Assembly: GCF_900115845.1 (NCBI RefSeq)
Contig: NZ_FOXX01000009.1
Coordinates: 128,406-152,405 of the forward strand
From: Priestia endophytica DSM 13796
GTDB lineage: Bacteria > Bacillota > Bacilli > Bacillales > Bacillaceae_H
DNA: 24,000 nucleotides
Direction of reading: 5' to 3'
The notes below the pieces were generated by a model, which saw only the letters and a program-made list of their open reading frames with translations, made no database searches and was not told where the DNA came from. Shown here piece after piece: positions 1,694-19,740 of this stretch (position 1 is the stretch's first letter; every line of letters begins with the position of its first letter). The translations under genes and the position numbers were made by a program.

Positions 1694-2347
1694 CTAGGTT
1701 AACCAATGGGGGTAATTATCAATAAGTTGCTGTAAATCATGTAGAAAAAGGCCTACATGGTAACCATCACATACAGCATGATGAACTCGTATTGAGATAG
1801 GCAATAATGTTTGCTCACCGTTAGAAGCATATTTTCCACATGTAATAATAGGAAGAAGATAATCTTCCCCGTTAAATAAGTTTAATTCAAAAGATGAAAA
1901 GTTCACCCATGGGATTGAAGAGATTGAGAACGTATGGGGTGGGACATTTTCTTTTACCCATAGTCCTTTTTGATGACCGAATACGTTCAAATCAGACTCA
2001 TAATCTTTATAAAAAGTGGAGAAGTCCGAAGAATAATCGGTCCAGAGCGCCGAAAAAGTCCGAGCATCTCTATGAAAAACCGTATAATTCGGGACAACTT
2101 CATTCCAATATCCAAGAATTCCTTTTTCATTAAAGGTGGTTCTAAATTCTCTATGCTTGTTAACAATTCGCGTCACCATATAAATAAACGCAGGATAAAA
2201 TTTAATATCCTTATCTTTTAATGCTACTAGTAACTCTGTTACGTCTACATTCGCTGTCATATTGAAAGAACATTTTGCTCCACTCATATAGTGATGGAAA
2301 TGTTCTTTTCTATTCCAATGTTCAATATCAATTTGATGAAAGTTCAT
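1694..2347 (-). CDS. cat: Type A chloramphenicol O-acetyltransferase
   Basis: 217 aa with the catalytic signature HHAVCDGYH near the C-terminus. The length and N-terminus (W.RKEHF.HY) are typical of classical CATs. A GGAGG Shine-Dalgarno (complement of 2355-2359) lies 7 nt upstream of the ATG. Confidence 0.95.
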   Translation of the reverse strand: MNFHQIDIEHWNRKEHFHHYMSGAKCSFNMTANVDVTELLVALKDKDIKFYPAFIYMVTRIVNKHREFRTTFNEKGILGYWNEVVPNYTVFHRDARTFSALWTDYSSDFSTFYKDYESDLNVFGHQKGLWVKENVPPHTFSISSIPWVNFSSFELNLFNGEDYLLPIITCGKYASNGEQTLLPISIRVHHAVCDGYHVGLFLHDLQQLIDNYPHWLT

Positions 2348-5230: not shown

Positions 5231-5503
5231 ATGAATAACGCATTTAAAGCTCTCGCTGATATCACTCGTCGCAAAATTTTGTCTCTCTTAAAAGAAAGAG
5301 ATATGACAGCTGGGGAAATTGCAGAACAGTTTAATATGTCAAAGCCTAGCATTTCTCAGCACTTAAAAATCTTGAAAAATGCCGACCTTGTTTCAGATGA
5401 AAAGAAAGGTCAGTATGTTGTGTATTCTTTAAATGCGACTGTTTTCCAAGAACTTGTGAGCTGGGCCCTTGATTTTGTGGAAAAAGGAGATGAAAAGAAA
5501 TGA
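5231..5503 (+). CDS. sdpR: ArsR/SdpR-family autorepressor
   Basis: 90 aa winged-HTH protein (ITRRKILSLL...MSKPSISQHLKILKNADLV). The size and the ATGA overlap with a downstream SdpI-family gene match the sdpRI arrangement. Confidence 0.8.
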   Translation: MNNAFKALADITRRKILSLLKERDMTAGEIAEQFNMSKPSISQHLKILKNADLVSDEKKGQYVVYSLNATVFQELVSWALDFVEKGDEKK

Positions 5504-6135
5504 AAAAACACGTCTTCCCTCTTATCATTATGTCACTTTCTATCTTATGTTGGGTGATACTCTATAATAAGCTACCTTCTCAAATCCCGATGCAGTGGGG
5601 AGTTGATGGGACTGTGAACTCTTATGCCCCTAAACTACAAGCAGCGTTTACTCACAATGGAATCTTGCTGTTCTTGTATGCGGTTTTAGTGCTTTCCCCT
5701 AAAATGGATCCTCGGAAACAAAACTACCCGAAATTTTCACGATCGTATCGAATCATCACTCTTGCTATTATGTTGGTTTTGTTTCTTCTTAACATTTCCG
5801 TTCTTCTTGCAAGTCTTGGATACAACTTAAATGTCACAACCATTACTCCTATCCTTGTTGGTATTTTATTTATTATTCTAGGAAACTATATGCAAACTGT
5901 AAAACCTAACTTTTTTATTGGGATTAGAACTGCTTGGACGCTCAGCAATGAGCAAGTGTGGCGAAAAACACACAGACTTGGTTCAAAACTGTTTATCCTA
6001 GGAGGTATCTTATTCTTCGTAACTCCGTTTGTTCCGGAACAACTGTTATTTCCTCTTATCATCTCTATTATTCTTGCTGTTGTTCTTATTCCAACTCTCT
6101 ATTCATATGTTCAGTATCGGAAAATTACAAAATAA
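5500..6135 (+). CDS. sdpI: SdpI/YhfL-family membrane immunity/signal-transduction protein
   Basis: 211 aa with 5-6 TM helices. It has the DUF1648-type N-terminus (LPSQIPMQWGVDGTVNSY) and the SdpI-type motif GNYMQTVKPNFFIGIRTAWTLSNEQVW. It is translationally coupled to sdpR by an ATGA overlap at 5500-5503. Confidence 0.82.
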   Translation: MKKHVFPLIIMSLSILCWVILYNKLPSQIPMQWGVDGTVNSYAPKLQAAFTHNGILLFLYAVLVLSPKMDPRKQNYPKFSRSYRIITLAIMLVLFLLNISVLLASLGYNLNVTTITPILVGILFIILGNYMQTVKPNFFIGIRTAWTLSNEQVWRKTHRLGSKLFILGGILFFVTPFVPEQLLFPLIISIILAVVLIPTLYSYVQYRKITK

Positions 6136-9178: not shown

Positions 9179-9787
9179 ATGAGCACAGCACAAAATCATT
9201 CAAAGATTGAAAAGGAAGAGCTAAATTTAAAAGACGCTGTTTTTGTTTTTGCCTCTTTTACTTTAATGGGCATAGCAGCGATCACATTGTTAATTATTTT
9301 TGATGTTTTGACGCTAGATCAATTTTTATCATTTCATAACCCCGCTACACTTATGACCATGACGGTTACAACAACGATAGGACTTATCTTATTTGGTATT
9401 CTTTTAACGATTTTGATTCCTTCTAATTATATTGATAATCAGAATAAGCAATACCAAACATCTTCTATATCAGCACTATTTTCTCTTTTTCTTTTTGGAT
9501 CATTGTTTGAAGAGCTTTTATTTAGAGGAATTGTTCAAAATTTACTTCTTCTTTATATAGAAGAAAGCTGGACAGGAATTTTCATTACTTCTCTTCTATT
9601 TTTAGCTCTTCATGTTCAATATTTTAAAAAGCCGCTCATGCTTTTTAATATTCTATTACCAAGTCTTGCATTTGGCTGGGTATATGTGAAAACAAGTAAT
9701 ATTTTAGCACCAATCATCGCCCATTTTTTCCTTAATTTTGTCATAACTATTCTCTTTAAATATCGAATTCTAAAATTAAAACCCTAA
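9179..9787 (+). CDS. CPBP family intramembrane glutamic endopeptidase (CAAX protease / Abi bacteriocin-immunity family)
   Basis: 202 aa polytopic protein. All three CPBP motifs are present: EELLFRG (EExxxR), FLALH (FxxxH) and IIAHFFLNF (HxxxN). The Shine-Dalgarno is weak. Confidence 0.88.
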   Translation: MSTAQNHSKIEKEELNLKDAVFVFASFTLMGIAAITLLIIFDVLTLDQFLSFHNPATLMTMTVTTTIGLILFGILLTILIPSNYIDNQNKQYQTSSISALFSLFLFGSLFEELLFRGIVQNLLLLYIEESWTGIFITSLLFLALHVQYFKKPLMLFNILLPSLAFGWVYVKTSNILAPIIAHFFLNFVITILFKYRILKLKP

Positions 9788-11549: not shown

Positions 11550-11622
11550 CCCATCACCTCTTGACGTCCTGTTGTTTTTATCATATGTGATATTGATGGA
11601 AAAACCAAACGTTAATACAATA

Positions 11623-11655
11623 AAGAAGCGGTTGCTAATGTAGCAACCGCTTCTT
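11623..11655 (-). terminator. Intrinsic terminator after the small charged-protein gene
   Basis: Perfect 15-bp stem aagaagcggttgcta / tagcaaccgcttctt with a 3-nt loop. It begins right after the stop codon and is followed by a T-rich tract on the minus strand. Confidence 0.75.
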
Positions 11656-11874
11656 TTATTTATGCTTTTTTTCTGTCGAAGAAGAATCCTTTGTACGATG
11701 CTTTCTTTTTTCGTCTTTCTGATCCAGTTCAACCTCTTCCAGTGGAATATGATCGACGTTTTGTTGACTTTCAAATTTGTCTAACTCTGTTCGGTCTTTT
11801 ACTTCGGATTCTTTTGAAGGTTCATTCTTTATACGTTCTTCTTCTTTATAATCATTATGTCTCGTTTTCGCCAT
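11656..11874 (-). CDS. Small, highly charged Lys/Glu/Asp-rich protein (72 aa), function unknown
   Basis: A strong AAGGGAGGAAG Shine-Dalgarno lies 5 nt before the ATG, a TATAAT sits upstream, and the gene has its own terminator. No hydrophobic segment is present and the composition predicts disorder. Confidence 0.65.
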   Translation of the reverse strand: MAKTRHNDYKEEERIKNEPSKESEVKDRTELDKFESQQNVDHIPLEEVELDQKDEKRKHRTKDSSSTEKKHK

Positions 11875-11989: not shown

Positions 11990-13444
11990 TTATGTAAGCG
12001 GAAGCTCTATTTTAATATATGCTCCCCCTTCTTTTTGATTATAAGCCTCAATTTCTCCACCGTGATTTTGGACAATAGAGTGCGCAATATAGAGGCCAAG
12101 CCCTGCGTTTCCTTCTGTACTTCCTCTTGATTGATCTTCTCGGTAAAACTTCTCAAACAGCTTTTTGTTATGATTTTGCGCAAACCCAGGTCCGCTATCT
12201 TTCACTTCAAATAAAACGGTCTCATTCTGGGTTGTAATATTCCACGTAATCTTTCCACCCCGAGGAGTGTAGCGAATACAGTTTGTGATCACATTATCAA
12301 AAGCTTGGGCAATAAGATGTGGATCAATATGGAAGAATTCCTGTTCACCATGGACCATATAAGAGAAATAAACGTCTTTTTTTTGGCTTAAAAGCTCAAA
12401 TTCGCTCCCTTTTGATTCAACAAATTCTCTAATATTAATCGGTTCTTTTTTTACAGAAAACGTAACATTCTCTAAGACGGAAACATCACGAAGTTGATCA
12501 AGTAAGCGAATGGAACGAACCGTATTTCTAAAAATGGTTTGTAAATAATCATCAAGTCGCTTCAGATTGTTTTTACTTCCTTCAAGAAGTCCTTCTGTAT
12601 GACCATGAATGATTGTAAGCGGGGTTCTTAAATCATGAGCAATCGCTGCTGTCATTTCTTTTCGGTCTTCTTCAAGCTTCCATTGACGTGTTAGTGACTC
12701 TTTAAGAGCAACTCTCATGTCTTCAAATGCATGAACAAGCTGATCTAATTCTCTCGATTCTTGAACTTTCGGTAGCGAAAACTCCAAGTCGTTACGCTGA
12801 ATTTTATGAGATGCATCAATAAGCTCGTTGAACGGTTTCTCAATTTTCCGGCTAAAGCGACGTCCAAACAGATAAGAGAAAAGATAGAAATAAAGAAACG
12901 GACTACTAAACAATAAAAACGTCGCTCCCACAATAAACAAACGGTCCTTTGGATTAGAAGAAGCAAGCGTTAATTTGTAGCGCAACAAAACAGCGCCATT
13001 TACTTCTTTTTCTCTATTAAACAGTGGATAGAGTTTAACAAAATATGTACCATCATGGATATCACTGTTCAGCTTAGAATAAAGGTCTCGTTTACTTCTG
13101 ATATACGTTTTTTCAATCGAACCGTATACAACATCCCCTTCTTTATTCAGAATTTGATAGCCAATTCCTTCTGTTGGAATCTCTTTTTCAAGTCTGCTTT
13201 GAAAACTTCGGGATGTAACATCGCTTTCATGTTTTTGAACAAATGCGAGCACATCAGGGATTTTTTTCTCATAGTAGTTAGCAGGATTCAGCCCGTTCGG
13301 AATAAGGAATATAATGGCGCATAGCACAATAGCTCCTGCAGTAATAATGGTCGCAAGTATACTAAATAAGAGGACAAGATGAAAAGACGTAACAAGCTGG
13401 GTTCTTAGACTTGCGCTCTTTTTCCATTTCTTCAACTTACCCAT
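11990..13444 (-). CDS. Sensor histidine kinase (EnvZ/LanK-like; two TM helices flanking an extracytoplasmic loop)
   Basis: H-box AAIAHDLRTPLT, N-box NVITNCIRYTP, G1 VKDSGPGF and G2 GLGLYIA. The two TM segments lie more than 100 residues apart. I start the gene at ATG 13444, which overlaps the response-regulator stop by 13 nt. Confidence 0.9.
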   Translation of the reverse strand: MGKLKKWKKSASLRTQLVTSFHLVLLFSILATIITAGAIVLCAIIFLIPNGLNPANYYEKKIPDVLAFVQKHESDVTSRSFQSRLEKEIPTEGIGYQILNKEGDVVYGSIEKTYIRSKRDLYSKLNSDIHDGTYFVKLYPLFNREKEVNGAVLLRYKLTLASSNPKDRLFIVGATFLLFSSPFLYFYLFSYLFGRRFSRKIEKPFNELIDASHKIQRNDLEFSLPKVQESRELDQLVHAFEDMRVALKESLTRQWKLEEDRKEMTAAIAHDLRTPLTIIHGHTEGLLEGSKNNLKRLDDYLQTIFRNTVRSIRLLDQLRDVSVLENVTFSVKKEPINIREFVESKGSEFELLSQKKDVYFSYMVHGEQEFFHIDPHLIAQAFDNVITNCIRYTPRGGKITWNITTQNETVLFEVKDSGPGFAQNHNKKLFEKFYREDQSRGSTEGNAGLGLYIAHSIVQNHGGEIEAYNQKEGGAYIKIELPLT

Positions 13445-14112
13445 TTGTATCCAATGCCCCACACTGTTGAAATGTAGTCTCTGCATCCTTTGTATTTAGA
13501 AAGTTTAGCGCGAATTTTTTTAATATGTTCTGTCACTGTTGAAGAGTCTCCTTCCGCATCATATCCCCAAATTTTTTCATACAGCTGCTCTCGTGTGAAC
13601 ACTTGTCCTGGATGAAGCGCTAGAAAGTGCAGAAGCTCAAACTCTCTTGATGTAAATGGAAGTTTTTCATTGTTATATAAAATTTGATAGCCGTCTAAGT
13701 CAATTGTTAAATAGCCAAAATGAAGTCGATTATATGCTGTGCTTTCCGTCCGCTTCTCTCGCCTCAAATGAGCATAAATTCTCATTTTTAGCTCCTTCAT
13801 GCTAAATGGCTTTATTAAATAGTCATCTCCTCCAACTAAAAGACCTTTGATCCGATCTTGCTCGGTTTGTTTTGCACTTAAAAACAAAATCGGACAAGAG
13901 ACATTTTTACGGATAAGTTCACAAAGCTCAAATCCGTCCATTTCAGGCATCATCACATCTAAAAGAATAAGATCTGGTCGTTCTTTTAGTTTAGTGAGCG
14001 CCTCTTTTCCATCATAGGCACATAGCACATCATATCCTTCATCTTCTAAAGCATCTCTCATAAACGAGATAATTTCTTTCTCATCATCCACAAGCAGAAT
14101 TTTTTCTTGCAT
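13432..14112 (-). CDS. OmpR/PhoB-family response regulator
   Basis: 226 aa. The receiver domain has DD at the N-terminus and the phospho-acceptor in LILLDVMMPEMDG. The C-terminal winged helix is Trans_reg_C type (VWGIGYKW). Confidence 0.93.
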   Translation of the reverse strand: MQEKILLVDDEKEIISFMRDALEDEGYDVLCAYDGKEALTKLKERPDLILLDVMMPEMDGFELCELIRKNVSCPILFLSAKQTEQDRIKGLLVGGDDYLIKPFSMKELKMRIYAHLRREKRTESTAYNRLHFGYLTIDLDGYQILYNNEKLPFTSREFELLHFLALHPGQVFTREQLYEKIWGYDAEGDSSTVTEHIKKIRAKLSKYKGCRDYISTVWGIGYKWVS

Positions 14113-14119
14113 TTTATCT

Positions 14120-14890
14120 TCATCCTATCCATTCTTTTTTCTTCCATACGGTTATATTTATTATAATGCTAAGTCCCAATATTGGAAATAGAAGGAATAA
14201 GAAATTTTCAGAGCTTTTACCGCTTAGTTGATAAAAAATCGAATCGGTCATTGAAAAGAAGAAAAGAAGCTGATCTGACGCATAGACACTCCCAATTAAT
14301 ATAGCGATTAATCCAACATATGAAAGAATGGCATTTGGCATAAGAACGCTCACTAAGCTAGCAAGTGTAATAATTGTGAGAAAAATAGCAAACGCAATGC
14401 CGTAAAATTTAAGCGTATAGAGAAATGCTCCCATCGCATCTACATCATGCCCACCTAAAAATACCGTATATTCTACATTCGGCATCACAATTTTCCCAAA
14501 CAAAAACCCGGTTACACCTGTAATAACTAACACACCGAAAAACAGAAAACATTGAATAAACCACTTCGCTAAAAACAGCTGTAAACGTGACTGAGGACGA
14601 ATTAATACAAGGCGCAGTGCCCCTGACGCATATTCTCCGTTAAAACTATCTACAACAAGCATTGGAATGAGAATAAATGTAAGAAAGAAGGCTAAATCTC
14701 GTAAATAAAGGGTAGAAGAATTTAGCGAATCCATCTTTACATCATGTTCCGGATCAAAGAAAGTGGTTCCTCCCATTGCAAATAAAAACAAACATTCAAA
14801 TCCAAGCAATAACAGATAAACAATAAGCATAATAATAGTCTTTTTTCGTTTGAAAGTTCTTTCTAGTTCACTCCAAATTAATTGTTTCAT
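14120..14890 (-). CDS. ABC-2 type transporter permease (LanG position)
   Basis: 256 aa with 6 predicted TM helices. The N-terminus MKQLIWSELERTFKRKK is paralogous to the upstream permease. AAGGAGAG Shine-Dalgarno. Fifteen nt separate it from the preceding gene. Confidence 0.85.
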   Translation of the reverse strand: MKQLIWSELERTFKRKKTIIMLIVYLLLLGFECLFLFAMGGTTFFDPEHDVKMDSLNSSTLYLRDLAFFLTFILIPMLVVDSFNGEYASGALRLVLIRPQSRLQLFLAKWFIQCFLFFGVLVITGVTGFLFGKIVMPNVEYTVFLGGHDVDAMGAFLYTLKFYGIAFAIFLTIITLASLVSVLMPNAILSYVGLIAILIGSVYASDQLLFFFSMTDSIFYQLSGKSSENFLFLLFPILGLSIIINITVWKKKEWIG

Positions 14891-14905
14891 TTCTGCTCTC
14901 TCCTT

Positions 14906-15733
14906 TTATAAAAATGTTTCTTTTTTTCGAAGTGTTAAAAATGTAAGCATGCTAAAAAACAAAATATAAAACCCCATCACTCCTAGATTCCATAAAACAA
15001 ACTGTGGTTTTTCAGCAATCATCGTTGTAATACCTTCATGTTGAATCATTGGAATTGAAGTAAAAAAGAATTTTGCAAACGTTACTTGATCAATAAATCC
15101 ACTAAATACTTTTAACATATAAGGATAAGAGAATGAAAAAAGTAAGAAACCCACTCCTCCTCCAATGGCTGCTGTCGTTGTTTTACTCACAACGGCAATA
15201 AATACGAGTACAGCCCCAATTGCAACGGTCGTTATATATGACAATCCATAGAACTCAAGATTATAAATTAAGCCTTCTTTAAAGCTAAACAACTCGTTAT
15301 GATAGAAAACAGCATAGTTTGCCTGATTATCAAAGAAAAAGAATCCTATTAAATAACTACTCAAAAAATAGATGATAAAAAAGAGAAACAAGAAGCCCAG
15401 TATAACAAGCACTTTAGCTGTGACAAGCTCACCAAGCGAACGAGCTCGAATCATCACCATGCGCAACTGTCCTGTTCGGTATTCTTCTGTAATCATCAAC
15501 GTAATAAAAACAAGTAAAAGCGCATTAAAGACGGTAAATAACATCTCAGATAACCCAAGTACAGCAAAGTTCCCTGTGAACGTATATTCCGGTAAGTCTG
15601 GACTTAGCTGCCCGTTTTGCTTTTGCAAATACGAAGCAGCAACAAGTAGTCCAGCAGGCGCCATCGCCAACACAATCCACGTTAATTTCCGTTTAAAAAG
15701 TCGCTCCCATTCCGCTAAAATTAAGGCCTTCAT
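14906..15733 (-). CDS. ABC-2 type transporter permease (LanE position)
   Basis: 275 aa with 6 predicted TM helices. The N-terminus is MKALILAEWERLFKRK. It overlaps the ATPase stop in an ATGA. Confidence 0.85.
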   Translation of the reverse strand: MKALILAEWERLFKRKLTWIVLAMAPAGLLVAASYLQKQNGQLSPDLPEYTFTGNFAVLGLSEMLFTVFNALLLVFITLMITEEYRTGQLRMVMIRARSLGELVTAKVLVILGFLFLFFIIYFLSSYLIGFFFFDNQANYAVFYHNELFSFKEGLIYNLEFYGLSYITTVAIGAVLVFIAVVSKTTTAAIGGGVGFLLFSFSYPYMLKVFSGFIDQVTFAKFFFTSIPMIQHEGITTMIAEKPQFVLWNLGVMGFYILFFSMLTFLTLRKKETFL

Positions 15734-16455
15734 CGTGACACCAACTCCACAAACGCATCTTCTAAATTTTGATTTTCAGATGCAAATTCATTTAAATCTC
15801 CGTTCCACATCAGTTCTCCTTCTCTAATCACAACAATCTGGTCGCAAACGCGCTGTAATTCATCAAGCAAGTGACTCGAAATTAAAATTGTTTTTCCATA
15901 CTCCTCTTTTAGCTTGAATAAAAGCTCGCGTAGTTCTCTTACTCCAATGGGATCAAGTCCATTTGCTGGTTCGTCTAATATCAGAAGTTCAGGATTTCCT
16001 AAAAGAGCTTGCGCAATCCCTAGTCGCTGCTTCATTCCAAGCGAGTAAGTGCGAACTTTATCATCTTCCCGCCCTGTTAATCCAACAATTTCGAGCACTT
16101 CACATACTCTTTTTTCACGTTCACTTTTAGAACTAATGTGAAGACGCGCTAGATTATGAAGATTTTCTCCTCCTGTCATATACGGAAAGAAAATGGGCGA
16201 CTCAACAATTGCTCCTACTTCCTTTAACGCTTCTTTACGATCTGTCATAATGTTTTTTCCATTTAATAAAATTCGACCCCCTGTTGGTTTAATTAAGCCT
16301 GTTAGCATACGGATGAGCGTTGTCTTCCCAGATCCATTTGGCCCTAATAACCCGCAGATGCCTCCACCTTTAACACTGAACGACACTCCCTTTAATAACG
16401 AGCGTTTTTTCATTTTTTTAGATACGTTTTGGACATTTAAAATTGTATTTTTCAT
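15730..16455 (-). CDS. ABC transporter ATP-binding protein (LanF/BcrA-like)
   Basis: Walker A GPNGSGKTT, signature SLGMKQR, Walker B LLILDEP and H-loop SSHLL. A Glu replaces the Q-loop Gln (VGAIVESP). I start the gene at ATG 16455, 9 nt after GGAGG. The ORF-track ATG at 16500 lacks a Shine-Dalgarno. Confidence 0.93.
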   Translation of the reverse strand: MKNTILNVQNVSKKMKKRSLLKGVSFSVKGGGICGLLGPNGSGKTTLIRMLTGLIKPTGGRILLNGKNIMTDRKEALKEVGAIVESPIFFPYMTGGENLHNLARLHISSKSEREKRVCEVLEIVGLTGREDDKVRTYSLGMKQRLGIAQALLGNPELLILDEPANGLDPIGVRELRELLFKLKEEYGKTILISSHLLDELQRVCDQIVVIREGELMWNGDLNEFASENQNLEDAFVELVSR

Positions 16456-16462
16456 AAGAAAA

Positions 16463-16489
16463 TCCCTCCTAACGTCAGTATAGGAGGGA
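16463..16489 (-). promoter_or_regulatory. Perfect hairpin sequestering the Shine-Dalgarno of the ABC ATPase gene
   Basis: tccctccta (16463-16471) and taggaggga (16481-16489) with a 9-nt loop. In the mRNA this reads UCCCUCCUA-N9-UAGGAGGGA-UUUUCUU-AUG. The 3' arm is the ATPase gene's Shine-Dalgarno, and the hairpin plus its U-rich tail is also terminator-like. Confidence 0.6.
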
Positions 16490-16517
16490 ATTATAAACAT
16501 TTTATAAAGTTTTAGAA

Positions 16518-16772
16518 CTAAAGAAAAAATTTTCCTGCTGCAACAAGAGCAGCAACTTGGGCGGCCACTTTTAGAAAATCCACAAAAAAGCTGTGCCAGC
16601 CAACTCCTTTTTTCACAGAGCTTTCAATTGTATCAAGCTGCTTTTGAATGATCTCAAGCTTGTATAAAATGGTCTCTTTCTGAATCGTAAGCGCCGTAAT
16701 CTCTTTATCTTTTTCACTCATTCGATTTTCGAGTTTTGCAACACTTTCTGTTAATGACTCAATCTTATTCAT
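16518..16772 (-). CDS. Small coiled-coil protein with a C-terminal hydrophobic/amphipathic helix (84 aa; XhlA-like architecture), function unknown
   Basis: Heptad-like N-terminal two-thirds (LTESVAKLENRMSEKDKEITALTIQKETILYKLEIIQKQLDTIE). The C-terminus is FFVDFLKVAAQVAALVAAGKFFL. The start overlaps the upstream gene's stop by 8 nt, with AAAGAGG as its Shine-Dalgarno. Confidence 0.7.
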   Translation of the reverse strand: MNKIESLTESVAKLENRMSEKDKEITALTIQKETILYKLEIIQKQLDTIESSVKKGVGWHSFFVDFLKVAAQVAALVAAGKFFL

Positions 16773-17133
16773 CCTCTTTCACATCTCTTGTTCCCCATAA
16801 AGCAAGGAGAGCTATCGCAAAATAAACGCCTACTCCCGTGTTCAAGGGTTGCTTTGCTAGAATAAATCCTGCTGCCATCATTCCATACAAAAACGTTGAT
16901 GAAAGCAGTGACATCTTACGCATCCACGCTTTCCCCCATACAAGTCCAAGAATAAGGGAAATCAAACTTAAAATAAAAATACTTGCCCACTCTGCTTCAT
17001 TGCCAATTTCCTGAAACGTATAAAAAAATTCAGGACGATTATGAAACAGCTCATCATTTACTACTAGAACCATAGACCACCACGCTGTAATAACGATTAA
17101 AAACATTTCAATAAAAACATTTCGTCTTTCCAT
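16765..17133 (-). CDS. Small integral membrane protein, 4 predicted TM helices (122 aa), function unknown
   Basis: AAGAGG Shine-Dalgarno 6 nt before the ATG. There are four hydrophobic segments. It is the first gene of the operon and I recognise no family motif. Confidence 0.72.
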   Translation of the reverse strand: MERRNVFIEMFLIVITAWWSMVLVVNDELFHNRPEFFYTFQEIGNEAEWASIFILSLISLILGLVWGKAWMRKMSLLSSTFLYGMMAAGFILAKQPLNTGVGVYFAIALLALWGTRDVKEDE

Positions 17134-17273
17134 AGCATGCCTCTTTTCTATTCTAGCTTCTATACTCTATGAATTTTTCTTAATACTTGTCACACTTTTT
17201 ATATAGATGAAAAAGAGATTTTGAATAAGCCTGAAGATAACAAGCCCTTCCTTTCTCTACAAGCCATTAAAAT

Positions 17274-17313
17274 AAAAAAGCGTAATAACTTTTAAAAGTT
17301 ATTACGCTTTTTT
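17274..17313. terminator. Intrinsic terminator of the pentapeptide-repeat gene, overlapping its stop codon
   Basis: gcgtaataactt / aagttattacgc, flanked by an A6 run and a T6 run. It insulates the pentapeptide gene from the downstream seven-gene operon. Confidence 0.8.
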
Positions 17314-18144
17314 CCAATGATCTGGCACTTTTAATGATGGTGGCAACTTTGTATGACTATTTCCCTTTGCTGCGTTTACTTGTGCTTGAGTAAGAAAAAG
17401 ACTTCCCGTCAAATCTGCCCCGCTAAGATCTGCATCCCTAAAGTCTGCTCCAATTAAATCTGTAAAACGAAGGTCTGCTTCTCTAAGGTCTGCCGCAATA
17501 AGAAGAGCTCCTCTTAGATTCTCTCCTTTAAGTTTTGCTTTCCTAAGCTTAGCCCCTATATAGTCACTACTATACTTTCGTTTTTTCTTATGAGTGATTT
17601 GCGGACGAGCTAATTCACTTGTTTGTAAAAGCAGCGTATTTACTTTTGCTCTATGCCCAGCAATATCTATATGTAAAATTTCTTCTGGAGATTGTTCTGT
17701 CATCTTTTCTGTTTCTCTGAACATCTCCCTTAGCTCAGTATGAATAGATTTTGTTTCCTCGTAGCTCATTGCTTCATATAAGTAGGAAAGCATTTCATGA
17801 AGCTGCTGAACAATCGGATAGACGCTAAACATTTGTTCAGCATATTGTTTATTTCCTTTCCACTCTTTCCCTTTGTATATGATTCTAGATACTTTTTGAC
17901 CTGCTCCAAAACATTCATAAGCGACACAACCGCGAAACCCTTCCTGAATTAAGTTATCATGAATGCCGCACAAGTAATGATCTTGTAAATTCTGGCAAGG
18001 TGTTCCGCCATCTTTATCAAAAGCAAAATCAGCTGACTTTGCGTATGGCAATGCAACACAGCATAAACCAAAACAGCTTGTACAGTCTGAACTCAATGCT
18101 TTTTGAACTTCTACTTTATTTTCTAATTCAATCGACACTCTCAT
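17302..18144 (-). CDS. Cys-cluster domain / pentapeptide-repeat fusion protein
   Basis: 280 aa. The N-terminal roughly 90 aa carry about 11 Cys, including CTSCFGLCC (similar to the CxxCxxCC YkgJ-type metal-binding cluster) and CVAYECFG. The C-terminus holds about 9 tandem pentapeptide repeats (GENLRGALLIAADLREADLRFTDLIGADFRDADLSGADLTG). Confidence 0.88.
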   Translation of the reverse strand: MRVSIELENKVEVQKALSSDCTSCFGLCCVALPYAKSADFAFDKDGGTPCQNLQDHYLCGIHDNLIQEGFRGCVAYECFGAGQKVSRIIYKGKEWKGNKQYAEQMFSVYPIVQQLHEMLSYLYEAMSYEETKSIHTELREMFRETEKMTEQSPEEILHIDIAGHRAKVNTLLLQTSELARPQITHKKKRKYSSDYIGAKLRKAKLKGENLRGALLIAADLREADLRFTDLIGADFRDADLSGADLTGSLFLTQAQVNAAKGNSHTKLPPSLKVPDHWKKA

Positions 18145-18631
18145 CCCATCCCTTTTCTCATCCTGCTATATTCATATTAAAAGGAATGATGTAAAAAAGG
18201 AAGAGGGTTGTAAATTAGATTTCCATTCTGTTCATATTCCTTATTAACCAAGGTGATGACGTTTTCTAACTATGTAATGGCTTAAGAGTACTAATGGTTG
18301 TAATATAAACAGGTTTTAGTCAGCAAAATTCAAGAATGATCTTTTTCATTAAAACATGTCCCGCTCTTAATCCTACTCGTATTCCCCTTTTCAATGTTCC
18401 TTCTTGATACTGTTTGGCAAGAGCTCTACACTAAGAATTTGGATCTGAATTCCCTTGAATAATGAGGATGTTTTTTATCAATTATCATCCTTTCTTCCTT
18501 TTTATACATCATATTGGTAGTTTATAAGTAGGCTAGACCTTTAAAAAGAAAAAGATTCATTTGTAGGATTTAACTTTTTCAAAAATATGGTATACTACCC
18601 AAAAAAGCATATGAACATAATAATTAATTCG

Positions 18632-18802
18632 CAGTTTAGGGTCTCTTCCTTTTTTAAAGTAGGAGGTAACAGGGAACCAAGTGAAAAACTTGGGCGGTCC
18701 AGCCACTGTGATGAAGGAGTTTTTCGCCAGATGCCACTTAACAACTATTAGGGAAGGCGGTGAAAAGTGATGATTTCAGAGCCAGGATACCTACCTAATC
18801 TG
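18632..18802 (+). promoter_or_regulatory. Cobalamin (B12) riboswitch aptamer
   Basis: Conserved core: AACAGGGAACCAAGUGAAAAACUUGG...CCAGCCACUGUGA, then GCCACUU...GGGAAGGCGGUGAAAAG, then the B12-box AGAGCCAGGAUACCUACC. P1 pairs 18632-18640 with 18794-18802 at 8 of 9 positions. An extended -10 (TGgTATACT, ending at 18596) lies upstream. Confidence 0.85.
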
Positions 18803-18885
18803 TACGCTAGGATCTTCTAGGAAAGAGAGTAGTGTATACATATTCAGCATTGTTTATTTGTGCTGCTTATTTGTTATACATATTT

Positions 18886-18925
18886 CCCTCAACTCTAGAA
18901 ATGGTTGGGGATTTTTTATTTTTAT
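18886..18925 (+). terminator. Putative riboswitch expression-platform terminator
   Basis: CCC(U)CAAC / GUUGGGG, 7 bp with one bulge and a 10-nt loop, followed by AUUUUUUAUUUUUAUU. It sits between the aptamer and the AAGGGAGG Shine-Dalgarno. Confidence 0.5.
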
Positions 18926-18942
18926 TAAGGGAGGTTATAAAA

Positions 18943-19740
18943 TTGGAAGGTTTATCACTTTTTGCATTTGTATTTGTTTTAGGATTAAGACACGGCCTTG
19001 ATGCAGATCATTTAGCTTTTATTGATGGTCAAACAAGGTACAACTGGCGTATGGGAAGTCCTTTCTCAAGATGGGTTGGTACCTTATTTTCGTTCGGACA
19101 TGGGGGTGTTGTCGCATTAACTGCTGGAGTTTTAGGAATGGTGATGAGTAACTTTACGTTCCCATCATACTTTGACACTTTTGCTTCTTGGGTATCTATT
19201 TTATCTTTATTTTTGATTGGTACATTAAATACGTACAATTTAATTCGAACAAGAAGTAGTAAGGAAGAGTTTCAGCTTAGTGGTTTAAAAGGGAAATTCA
19301 TTCCGAAAATTGCAAAAGGAACAACAAATCCGCTTCTTATTATTCTTGTTGGTGCTCTCTTTGCCCTAGCAGCCGAAACAGTGAGTCAAACAGCTGTATG
19401 GACGTTAGCTGCTGGCAATTCAAGCTCATACACTCCCTTATTATTAGGTCTTGTATTTATGGTTGGCATGATGATTACGGATACAATTGATTCTTTTGTT
19501 GTGCACAAAATGGTCAAGGACTCAAGCAAATTTGGTCAAGCTGCTTCACGCCTTATGGGCTGGGTCATCGTTGTACTAGCCTACAGCGTCTCTTTCTATC
19601 TTGCTTTTACATTCTTTAATCCATGGGCGGAAATAGACTTTGAGATTGTTGGCGTTGTACTCTTTCTATTTCTTCTTTCAATGTTTATTTTTGTCCGGCT
19701 CAAAGCTAAAAAAGCAAACAACAGTGTTCAATCCGTGTAA
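18943..19740 (+). CDS. NiCoT/UreH-like metal (probably cobalt) transporter
   Basis: NiCoT signatures are present: RHGLDADHLAFID (HX4DH), FSFGHGGVV and GMMITDTIDS. I start the gene at TTG 18943, 8 nt after AAGGGAGG and downstream of the terminator-like hairpin. The ORF-track GTG at 18832 would put that hairpin inside the CDS. Confidence 0.82.
   Translation: MEGLSLFAFVFVLGLRHGLDADHLAFIDGQTRYNWRMGSPFSRWVGTLFSFGHGGVVALTAGVLGMVMSNFTFPSYFDTFASWVSILSLFLIGTLNTYNLIRTRSSKEEFQLSGLKGKFIPKIAKGTTNPLLIILVGALFALAAETVSQTAVWTLAAGNSSSYTPLLLGLVFMVGMMITDTIDSFVVHKMVKDSSKFGQAASRLMGWVIVVLAYSVSFYLAFTFFNPWAEIDFEIVGVVLFLFLLSMFIFVRLKAKKANNSVQSV

Follow-up and report, generated by a model that had tools for sequence, protein, structure and literature searches.

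Resistance operons of the CprABC type are defined by an ATP-binding cassette (ABC) transporter made of one nucleotide-binding domain (NBD) and two six-helix transmembrane domains (TMDs), a histidine kinase plus a response regulator, without biosynthesis genes, and they resemble the immunity genes of producers (PMC5786555). The other close comparison is with the LanFEG-LanRK genes of lantibiotic producers, such as NisFEG/NisRK and SpaFEG/SpaRK. Here I describe seven genes on the minus strand of a 24-kb stretch of the Priestia endophytica DSM 13796 genome (hereafter the window), of which five have this organization and two encode small membrane-associated proteins. A first-pass annotation of the sequence had presented all seven as one operon, an orphan LanFEG-LanRK-type immunity module with two small proteins in the place of LanI. 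The analysis indicates instead that the region probably consists of two independent transcription units that are neighbours in the P. endophytica/P. filamentosa lineage, a CprABC/LanFEG-RK resistance cassette (Unit 1, 11990-16509) and a phage-derived gene pair (Unit 2, 16518-17194).

Like Clostridioides difficile CprABC-CprK/R, to which it is likened by description, the five-gene module encodes one ABC-2 type NBD and two different six-helix TMDs of ~250 amino acids (aa). Beside these it encodes an OmpR-type regulator and a kinase that has an extracellular loop, and there are no biosynthetic genes nearby. It differs in that F-E-G-R-K form one block, whereas the C. difficile regulator gene is unlinked, and in that there is no adjacent lipoprotein gene. 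CprABC-RK had been named as the precedent for such a module, correctly, and the five-gene part is thereby of a known kind (PMC5786555). With the LanFEG-LanRK producer loci, and with the cluster on the P. megaterium plasmid pBM700, the module shares its gene order, gene sizes and an E-loop ATPase, but unlike the producer loci the window has no lanA, lanB, lanC, lanT or lanP gene, and no LanI. Another family of peptide-resistance modules, BceAB, is characterized by a single ~650-aa permease with 10 helices and a large external domain, and by an intramembrane-sensing kinase that lacks an external loop (PMC5786555); a BceAB-BceRS-type module was ruled out here, the permeases being 275 and 256 aa long and the kinase loop ~113 aa.

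Independent distribution of the two units

The seven minus-strand open reading frames (ORFs; Table 1) and, with the ATPase start at 16455 and the kinase start at 13444, all of their junctions are exactly as first annotated: the two small genes overlap by 8 nucleotides (nt; 16765-16772), a 62-nt gap (16456-16517) separates them from the ATPase gene, the ATPase and first permease genes share an ATGA overlap (15730-15733), gaps of 15 and 7 nt follow, and the regulator and kinase genes overlap by 13 nt (13432-13444). I nevertheless take the two units to be separate because they are distributed independently, because each possesses its own conserved promoter-like region, and because a hairpin that hides a Shine-Dalgarno (SD) sequence lies between them.

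A search with the 275-aa permease returned 37 cluster representatives, in Priestia, Risungbinella, Psychrobacillus, Lederbergia, Heyndrickxia, Paenibacillus, Marininema and Clostridium. Orphan loci were inspected in P. megaterium, Risungbinella massiliensis, Paenibacillus montaniterrae and Clostridium lundense. In all four, the five genes agree in order and size, with the ATGA and R/K overlaps and in unrelated neighbourhoods, and both the two small genes and lanthipeptide genes are absent. Identity to the window proteins, in the order F/E/G/R/K, is 76/61/61/80/58% for P. megaterium and 60/32/32/61/37% for C. lundense.

Conversely, the pair occurs without the module, and with the same 8-nt overlap, in P. 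flexa, where it lies between unrelated genes, and in Peribacillus, beside ileS and divIVA. Nucleotide similarity to these pair-only loci spans the window from 16502/16516 to 17150/17203, that is the two genes and their promoter; at its downstream end the homology stops at 16502-16516, a few nt from the stop codon of the 84-aa gene. The small genes therefore do not always travel with the transporter and two-component genes, the two sets co-occurring only in P. endophytica and P. filamentosa and being separate elsewhere among the loci examined. The proposal that all seven genes make up one operon or system is not supported, on the same ground, with the five-gene module lacking the pair at four loci and the pair lacking the module in P. 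flexa, Peribacillus and phages.

Within P. flexa, comparison of two strains (locus L002, 9540-10871, and locus L003, 9540-10879) showed that a 1.33-kb segment carrying the pair is inverted relative to both flanks. It is 91% identical between the strains, the flanks being 96-98% identical, and ~4 kb present at this site in L002, encoding an amino-acid permease and a Mn catalase, is missing in L003. No flanking inverted repeats were found at the inverted segment, and a screen around the pair for such repeats, which could betray an invertible or mobile element, turned up AT-rich noise only.

Control regions of the module and of the pair

The control region of the module begins 8 nt past the stop codon of the 84-aa gene. 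I aligned the 90-100 nt upstream of the ATPase gene from seven sequences (the window and six orphan-module loci, five species in all), in which a tandem repeat, CTTTATAAA-(A/T)T-(G/C)TTTA, the -10 box (kept as TATACT, TATATT or TATAAT) and the SD are invariant. The repeat has its sole exact match in the window at this site, so that no second copy of the regulator box accompanies the promoter of the small pair by exact-match search of the window, and its pattern occurs once per orphan-module locus and nowhere else among the 17 loci compared. An 11-bp tandem repeat at the -35 position is the usual activator site of OmpR/PhoB-family regulators, and the tandem CTTTATAAA repeat is proposed here as the binding site of the module's own regulator. 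Upstream of the pBM700 ATPase gene there is a similar, weaker element, (N)TTTAT-N5-(N)TTTAT, followed by a TATATT box.

The hairpin that had been noticed in the 62-nt gap is real (dG -17.5 kcal/mol, z = -4.8), and 0/200 shuffled sequences fold as well. It sequesters the SD of the ATPase gene, AGGAGGG (16470-16464). The equivalent hairpin reaches -23.9 in P. megaterium (z = -5.8) and -18.6 in Risungbinella (z = -4.2), both significant, while that of Paenibacillus is weak. For an RNA that begins 3' of the -10 box, folding is not significant (-2.6, z = -0.45); as the -10 box is itself located in the 5' arm and loop, a transcript from the module promoter would be without the anti-SD arm. The hairpin may thus be a terminator or silencer of read-through from upstream, in effect an insulator. 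It belongs to the module, and does not link the small genes with the transporter. Rfam gave no match in the region. Where the 84-aa gene ends, a stem resembling a terminator (16535-16555) was discarded, since shuffled sequence folds equally well (z = 0.0).

In P. megaterium (locus L008, 5294-7215), the orphan module is preceded by an extracytoplasmic function (ECF) sigma factor gene, a 359-aa gene that possibly encodes an anti-sigma factor, and a gene for an 87-aa membrane protein, whose stop codon precedes the CTTTATAAA box by a few nt. Small genes that closely abut the module on its upstream side are therefore not peculiar to P. endophytica. The 87-aa gene was ruled out as a homologue of the 84-aa gene, as the two show no similarity.

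The pair possesses a promoter-like motif of its own, with 17 nt between the AC of its first block and CATA. Promoters of the sigma-K/sigma-E type have, in the B. subtilis consensus, AC or ATA followed by CATA---TA, and I presume that the motif fits this type, as AC-17-CATAnnnTA, which is a lead only. The two sigma factors share the same -10 element (PMC517825). A sigma-A-like alternative, GTGACA-18-TAGAGT, can be read at the same motif. Across P. endophytica, P. flexa, Peribacillus and a metagenome contig the flanks diverge, but TGTGACAA and CATA-A-TAT do not vary.

The module proteins and their counterparts in lanthipeptide clusters

The five module genes were assigned as an orphan LanFEG-LanRK-type module from the best profile of the ATPase, its E-loop, paralogues at the same positions of lanthipeptide clusters, and the lack of biosynthesis genes in the window, and this part of the first-pass annotation stands. 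Against the NCBIfam models, the top match of the ATPase is TIGR03740 (lantibiotic-protection ATP-binding subunit), at 229.9 bits, under the cut-off of 309.75; it also scores well against the DrrA (193 bits) and GldA (176 bits) models. Neither permease matches TIGR03732 (MutE/EpiE) or TIGR03733 (MutG) at E <= 10. The lantibiotic-protection families are thus borne out for the ATPase, as its best although sub-threshold model, and not for the permeases. In a control scan, ATPases encoded inside genuine lanthipeptide clusters, on pBM700 and in C. botulinum, scored 204.6 and 214.7 bits, below the cut-off too, and the in-cluster permeases match nothing. Failure against these models therefore marks a separate subfamily rather than a different function, and the permease result was dropped as an argument against a lantibiotic role. 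The window proteins belong to a clade outside the MutE/EpiE and MutG models; in the strict sense they are not members of those NCBIfam subfamilies, but the putative function stands.

As had been pointed out, the ATPase has Glu in place of the Q-loop Gln: in the alignment to ABCA3, the E of VGAIVESP falls on the Q-loop Gln, and it does not vary among five orthologues and two in-cluster paralogues, the orphan and in-cluster ATPases having the motif GAI(V/I)E(S/A/N)PIFF in common. This E-loop is described as conserved in LanF proteins (PMC4742701; bioRxiv 10.1101/2025.10.09.681468). The two permeases, each with about six helices by a crude hydropathy count, are paralogues, as proposed, with 29% identity (E = 9e-12), and an NBD gene followed by two different ABC-2 TMD genes is the LanFEG/CprABC-type layout. 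Hydropathy also agrees with the sizeable extracytoplasmic kinase loop that had been described, with hydrophobic segments at residues ~15-55 and 169-189 and an external loop of ~113 aa between them. An OmpR regulator and a two-segment kinase with an external loop, beside transporter genes, is the LanRK-type arrangement. In IMG, the identical regulator protein is named 'lantibiotic biosynthesis response regulator NisR/SpaR' and one member of the kinase's cluster is named as a lantibiotic biosynthesis sensor kinase, while the deposited transporter annotations are all generic. PADLOC found no match for the permeases or the small pair and only generic ATPase matches for the ATPase; the locus is therefore not a known defence system.

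A tblastn search of 72,556 plasmids with the permease returned 16 records (E ~1e-25), all from Priestia or Clostridium botulinum, and the relatives lie in class I lanthipeptide clusters, on P. megaterium QM B1551 pBM700 and C. botulinum pRSJ6_2. The pBM700 cluster, for which two identical precursors 56% identical to gallidermin have been reported (PMC6165006), consists in order of genes for a lantibiotic dehydratase, a LanT-like ABC protein, LanC, a flavoprotein, F, E, G, a BceAB-like pair, the regulator, a HAMP kinase and an S8 peptidase. On pRSJ6_2, F-E-G are directly 5' of three annotated precursor genes of the gallidermin/nisin or FDLD families, followed by LanB, LanT and LanC. Window F/E/G/R/K are 52/29/33/53/37% identical to the same-position proteins of pBM700, and F/E/G are 55/31/31% identical to those of pRSJ6_2. 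In comparisons with other loci, the window's E-position permease is more similar to the proteins at position E than to those at position G. The module is homologous, position by position, to transporters inside genuine lanthipeptide clusters, and as far as sequence can tell the lantibiotic link rests on gene context beyond mere resemblance.

Unlike the window module, pBM700 has a BceAB-like transporter inserted between G and R. In this plasmid (locus L014, 6270-13418), the LanFEG-type transporter and the BceAB-like one (a 259-aa ATPase and a 613-aa permease) both lie between the biosynthetic genes and R-K, and the cluster thus combines both known types of lantibiotic transporter.

The window itself bears out the claim that it contains no lantibiotic precursor or biosynthesis genes, as no LanA/B/C/M/T/P-type domain was found in its other 20 ORFs >= 90 aa, and no such gene lies in the 12 kb to one side or the 7 kb to the other. 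Elsewhere in B. endophyticus genomes, lanthipeptide clusters of class II (two-peptide) have been reported (PMC5100339, PMC7789753).

The small proteins and their phage relatives

When 5.8 billion proteins were searched through a word index, the 122-aa protein returned just two clusters and the 84-aa protein four, and an exhaustive profile search extended the former to 39 distant cluster representatives. The 122-aa protein matches the phage-associated family phrog_8980 at E = 1.7e-4, as do 16/17 aligned family members (best E 1.8e-12). Its AlphaFold model has a predicted local distance difference test score (pLDDT) of 92.3 and shows four long helices and some short ones. The best matches of the model in a viral structure library are uncharacterised phage membrane proteins, while nothing specific was found in the PDB, only generic four-helix bundles at E > 0.6. 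One relative of the 122-aa protein follows tail genes on a phage-like contig. Another is located on a 145-kb phage contig, where the product of the overlapping next gene ends in the motif of the 84-aa protein (E = 5e-9), GW-x3-(V/I)D-x-LK-x-AA...A-x-GK-x-x-L, common to the C-termini of the 84-aa and phage proteins.

Bacillus phage Nachito (Herelleviridae) encodes the same overlapping pair, UXR28827/UXR28828, both annotated as membrane proteins. With the window small proteins as queries, tblastn gave no match in the phage collection, and Nachito was reached through a family member (P0044). As in the window, a four-helix membrane protein is followed by an overlapping gene for a coiled-coil protein whose C-terminal anchor carries the same motif. 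In phages the two proteins are longer, at 158-166 and 117-123 aa, whereas the bacterial copies are chromosomal and stand-alone, with their own conserved promoter. Both phage proteins have extra N-terminal coiled-coil segments. In Nachito (locus L017, 3896-4740), as in a second phage locus (L016, 6001-6844), the pair lies between terminase, sigma-factor and DHH-phosphoesterase genes and a helicase gene, and not in a lysis cassette.

The 84-aa protein also resembles XhlA, of the B. subtilis PBSX lysis cassette, in being small with an N-terminal coiled coil and a C-terminal anchor, and one UniRef entry uses that name. It has a weak match to a PHROG 'hemolysin' family (phrog_937, E = 0.002). Unlike XhlA, however, it has no adjoining holin or endolysin gene and no match to the Pfam XhlA family. 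The assignment to PF10779 was rejected: at E <= 1 it matched neither this protein nor its homologue in P. flexa nor two homologues from phages, and only coiled-coil noise was seen. Cysteine is missing from both the 122-aa and the 84-aa translation. Without one there is no lipobox, therefore neither can be a LanI lipoprotein.

A model for the two units and its alternatives

Under the two-unit reading, the kinase would sense a peptide through its ~113-aa external loop and phosphorylate the OmpR-type regulator, which would bind the tandem CTTTATAAA box in lieu of a -35 element and turn on F-E-G-R-K. The F2EG transporter, coupled through the E-loop, would then expel a lantibiotic from the membrane, and the cassette may so confer resistance. 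Read-through transcripts from upstream would be terminated, or made untranslatable by the anti-SD 5' arm, while transcripts from the module's own promoter would start without this arm and hence be translated. Unit 2 would be a bicistronic cassette of phage origin, in which a four-helix membrane protein is encoded together with a tail-anchored partner that has a coiled coil, and would be expressed from its own conserved promoter, possibly of the mother-cell sporulation type.

Of the other explanations considered, I regard as unlikely that the module provides self-immunity against a lanthipeptide that P. endophytica itself makes from a cluster elsewhere in its genome. Class II two-peptide clusters are predicted in B. 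endophyticus genomes (PMC5100339, PMC7789753), and the paralogues of the module do sit inside producer clusters; these, however, accompany class I peptides of the gallidermin/nisin type, whereas the type reported for the species is class II. Biosynthetic genes are lacking within 12 kb and 7 kb of the two sides, and in five genera, set in unrelated neighbourhoods, the module stands by itself with a sensor and a promoter of its own. Slightly less likely again is a transporter for something other than a lantibiotic, for example another membrane-active peptide or a lipid, with the LanFEG similarity reflecting ABC-2 ancestry only. That no protein reaches the cut-off of a curated lantibiotic-protection model, if it matches one at all, that the ATPase scores 193 and 176 bits against DrrA and GldA, and that the transporter annotations are all generic would fit such a substrate, but the in-cluster paralogues fail the same models and share the E-loop, all five genes have same-order paralogues in one lanthipeptide cluster, and the closest plasmid relatives are all in lanthipeptide clusters.

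Very improbable, in my view, is a single seven-gene operon whose small membrane proteins are accessory immunity factors replacing LanI or LanH. Its appeal comes from the tight spacing, with only 62 nt from the 84-aa gene to the ATPase gene, and from the gene order kept in P. endophytica and, by consecutive accessions, in P. filamentosa; small multi-pass membrane accessory proteins, for example NukH, also exist in some lantibiotic loci. It is opposed by the occurrence of the module without the pair in four genera, and of the pair without the module in two genera and in phages, by the conserved promoter-like region that each unit has for itself, and by the conserved SD-hiding hairpin with its U-run between them. 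The small proteins, moreover, have no cysteine or lipobox, and their promoter has no second regulator box near it. I consider it just as improbable that the phage-derived pair was recruited in P. endophytica and P. filamentosa as a new accessory immunity factor, with read-through gated by the anti-SD hairpin and the seven genes acting together.

The two-unit reading, with a lantibiotic-resistance cassette as one of the units, has several points against it, too. The ATPase is under the TIGR03740 trusted cut-off, and the permeases are unmatched by TIGR03732 and TIGR03733. The 'orphan' status holds for the 24-kb window only, given the class II clusters reported for the species. The proposed substrate, inducer and transcript boundaries are deduced from sequence. 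Lastly, the adjacency of the units is stable across P. endophytica and P. filamentosa, and some read-through coupling is possible there.

Features of the locus and other genes in the window

The features discussed are collected in Table 1. The ORF lister gave longer forms for the ATPase (start 16500) and the kinase (start 13486). The shorter starts, 16455 and 13444, were adopted because the orthologues agree with them (a 241-aa ATPase, and the 13-nt R/K overlap in P. megaterium) and because proteins of 241 and 484 aa are those deposited. Identical proteins are deposited for P. endophytica DSM 13796 (KYG26254-KYG26261). In P. filamentosa the same gene order is found in consecutive accessions (AKO92484-AKO92491), and in a second P. 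endophytica strain the DNA of the region is ~94% identical.

Table 1. Coordinates of genes and putative control elements in and around the two units (window numbering; 5' to 3' along the minus strand).
Feature	Position	Strand	Basis or remark
Intrinsic terminator of the upstream gene	17274-17313	-	Perfect palindrome, 20+20 nt, then T-run; 5' boundary of the region
Promoter-like motif of the pair	17162-17194	-	TGTGACAA (17194-17187), then CATAGAGTAT (17171-17162)
Four-helix membrane protein, 122 aa, phage-associated family phrog_8980	16765-17133	-	Profile match, predicted structure
84-aa protein, N-terminal coiled coil and C-terminal membrane anchor	16518-16772	-	Conserved partner, 8-nt overlap with the 122-aa gene
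Tandem direct repeat CTTTATAAA-AT-GTTTATAA, 11-bp period	16491-16509	-	At the -35 position; candidate OmpR-type regulator site
-10 box TATACT	16477-16482	-	Within hairpin 5' arm and loop
Hairpin TCCCTCCTA (16489-16481) / TAGGAGGGA (16471-16463)	16463-16489	-	Anti-SD paired with the ATPase SD; then UUUUCUU
LanF-type ABC ATPase, 241 aa, E-loop GAIVESPIFF	15730-16455	-	TIGR03740 top match; 52-55% identity to in-cluster ATPases
LanE-position ABC-2 permease, 275 aa	14906-15733	-	PF12730 ABC2_membrane_4; relatives carry precomputed PF10920
LanG-position ABC-2 permease, 256 aa	14120-14890	-	PF12730 and PF12679
OmpR-family response regulator, 226 aa	13432-14112	-	Response_reg and Trans_reg_C domains
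Sensor histidine kinase, 484 aa	11990-13444	-	HAMP, HisKA, HATPase (Pfam); hydropathy
Charged 72-aa ORF (11656-11874) with strong SD, and terminator (11622-11656)	11622-11874	-	First strong terminator 3' of the kinase

The 72-aa ORF, rich in Lys, Glu and Asp, starts 115 nt after the kinase stop codon and is followed by the terminator, which has a 16-bp stem; the ORF matches no family. No terminator-like site was found between the kinase stop codon and this ORF, therefore the module transcript may reach 11622-11656, carrying the 72-aa ORF as a 3' passenger. Conservation of this ORF is limited to P. endophytica and P. filamentosa. In P. megaterium, Risungbinella and Paenibacillus it does not follow the kinase gene, and in C. 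lundense there is a 68-aa ORF at this place.

On the other side of the region, the upstream neighbour (17302-18144, minus strand) encodes a protein with a Cys-rich N-terminal half, which has no Pfam match, and C-terminal pentapeptide repeats. Strong terminators had been placed either side of this gene; the one in Table 1 is clear, but nothing convincing was seen on the gene's other side. With its own strong terminator, this pentapeptide-repeat gene belongs to neither unit.

Two further loci on the plus strand recall peptide defence. At 5231-6135, a gene encoding a 90-aa helix-turn-helix protein of the ArsR family overlaps the beginning of one that encodes a 211-aa membrane protein of the SdpI/YfhL family, which is the arrangement of SdpR-SdpI in the cannibalism-toxin immunity and signalling of B. 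subtilis; no toxin gene was seen nearby. A CAAX/Rce1-like membrane protease (PF02517) is encoded at 9179-9787, and proteases of this kind are often linked to bacteriocin self-immunity. Together with the LanFEG-RK module, the SdpI-like gene and the CAAX protease make three putative peptide-defence loci in 24 kb. The window also contains a full-length cobalamin riboswitch (RF00174, 103 bits; 18621-18812, plus strand), directly 5' of a NicO-family nickel/cobalt transporter gene (18832-19740, plus strand), and a chromosomal chloramphenicol acetyltransferase gene (PF00302, E = 7e-82; 1694-2347, minus strand).

Implications

The seven-gene composition of this locus is a lineage-specific juxtaposition of two independent units, and otherwise an ordinary finding. 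Tight spacing alone had suggested a seven-gene operon, and it is the comparative context that splits the locus in two. Within Unit 1, the tandem CTTTATAAA repeat as a candidate operator and the promoter embedded in an anti-SD hairpin are modest new points, and both can be tested directly. A third is that the chromosomes of Priestia and Peribacillus maintain a phage membrane-protein pair with a conserved promoter of its own. The module also extends the CprABC/LanFEG-RK type of resistance cassette by a soil-Bacillales clade (Priestia, Risungbinella, Paenibacillus, Clostridium lundense) not covered by the curated models now in use.

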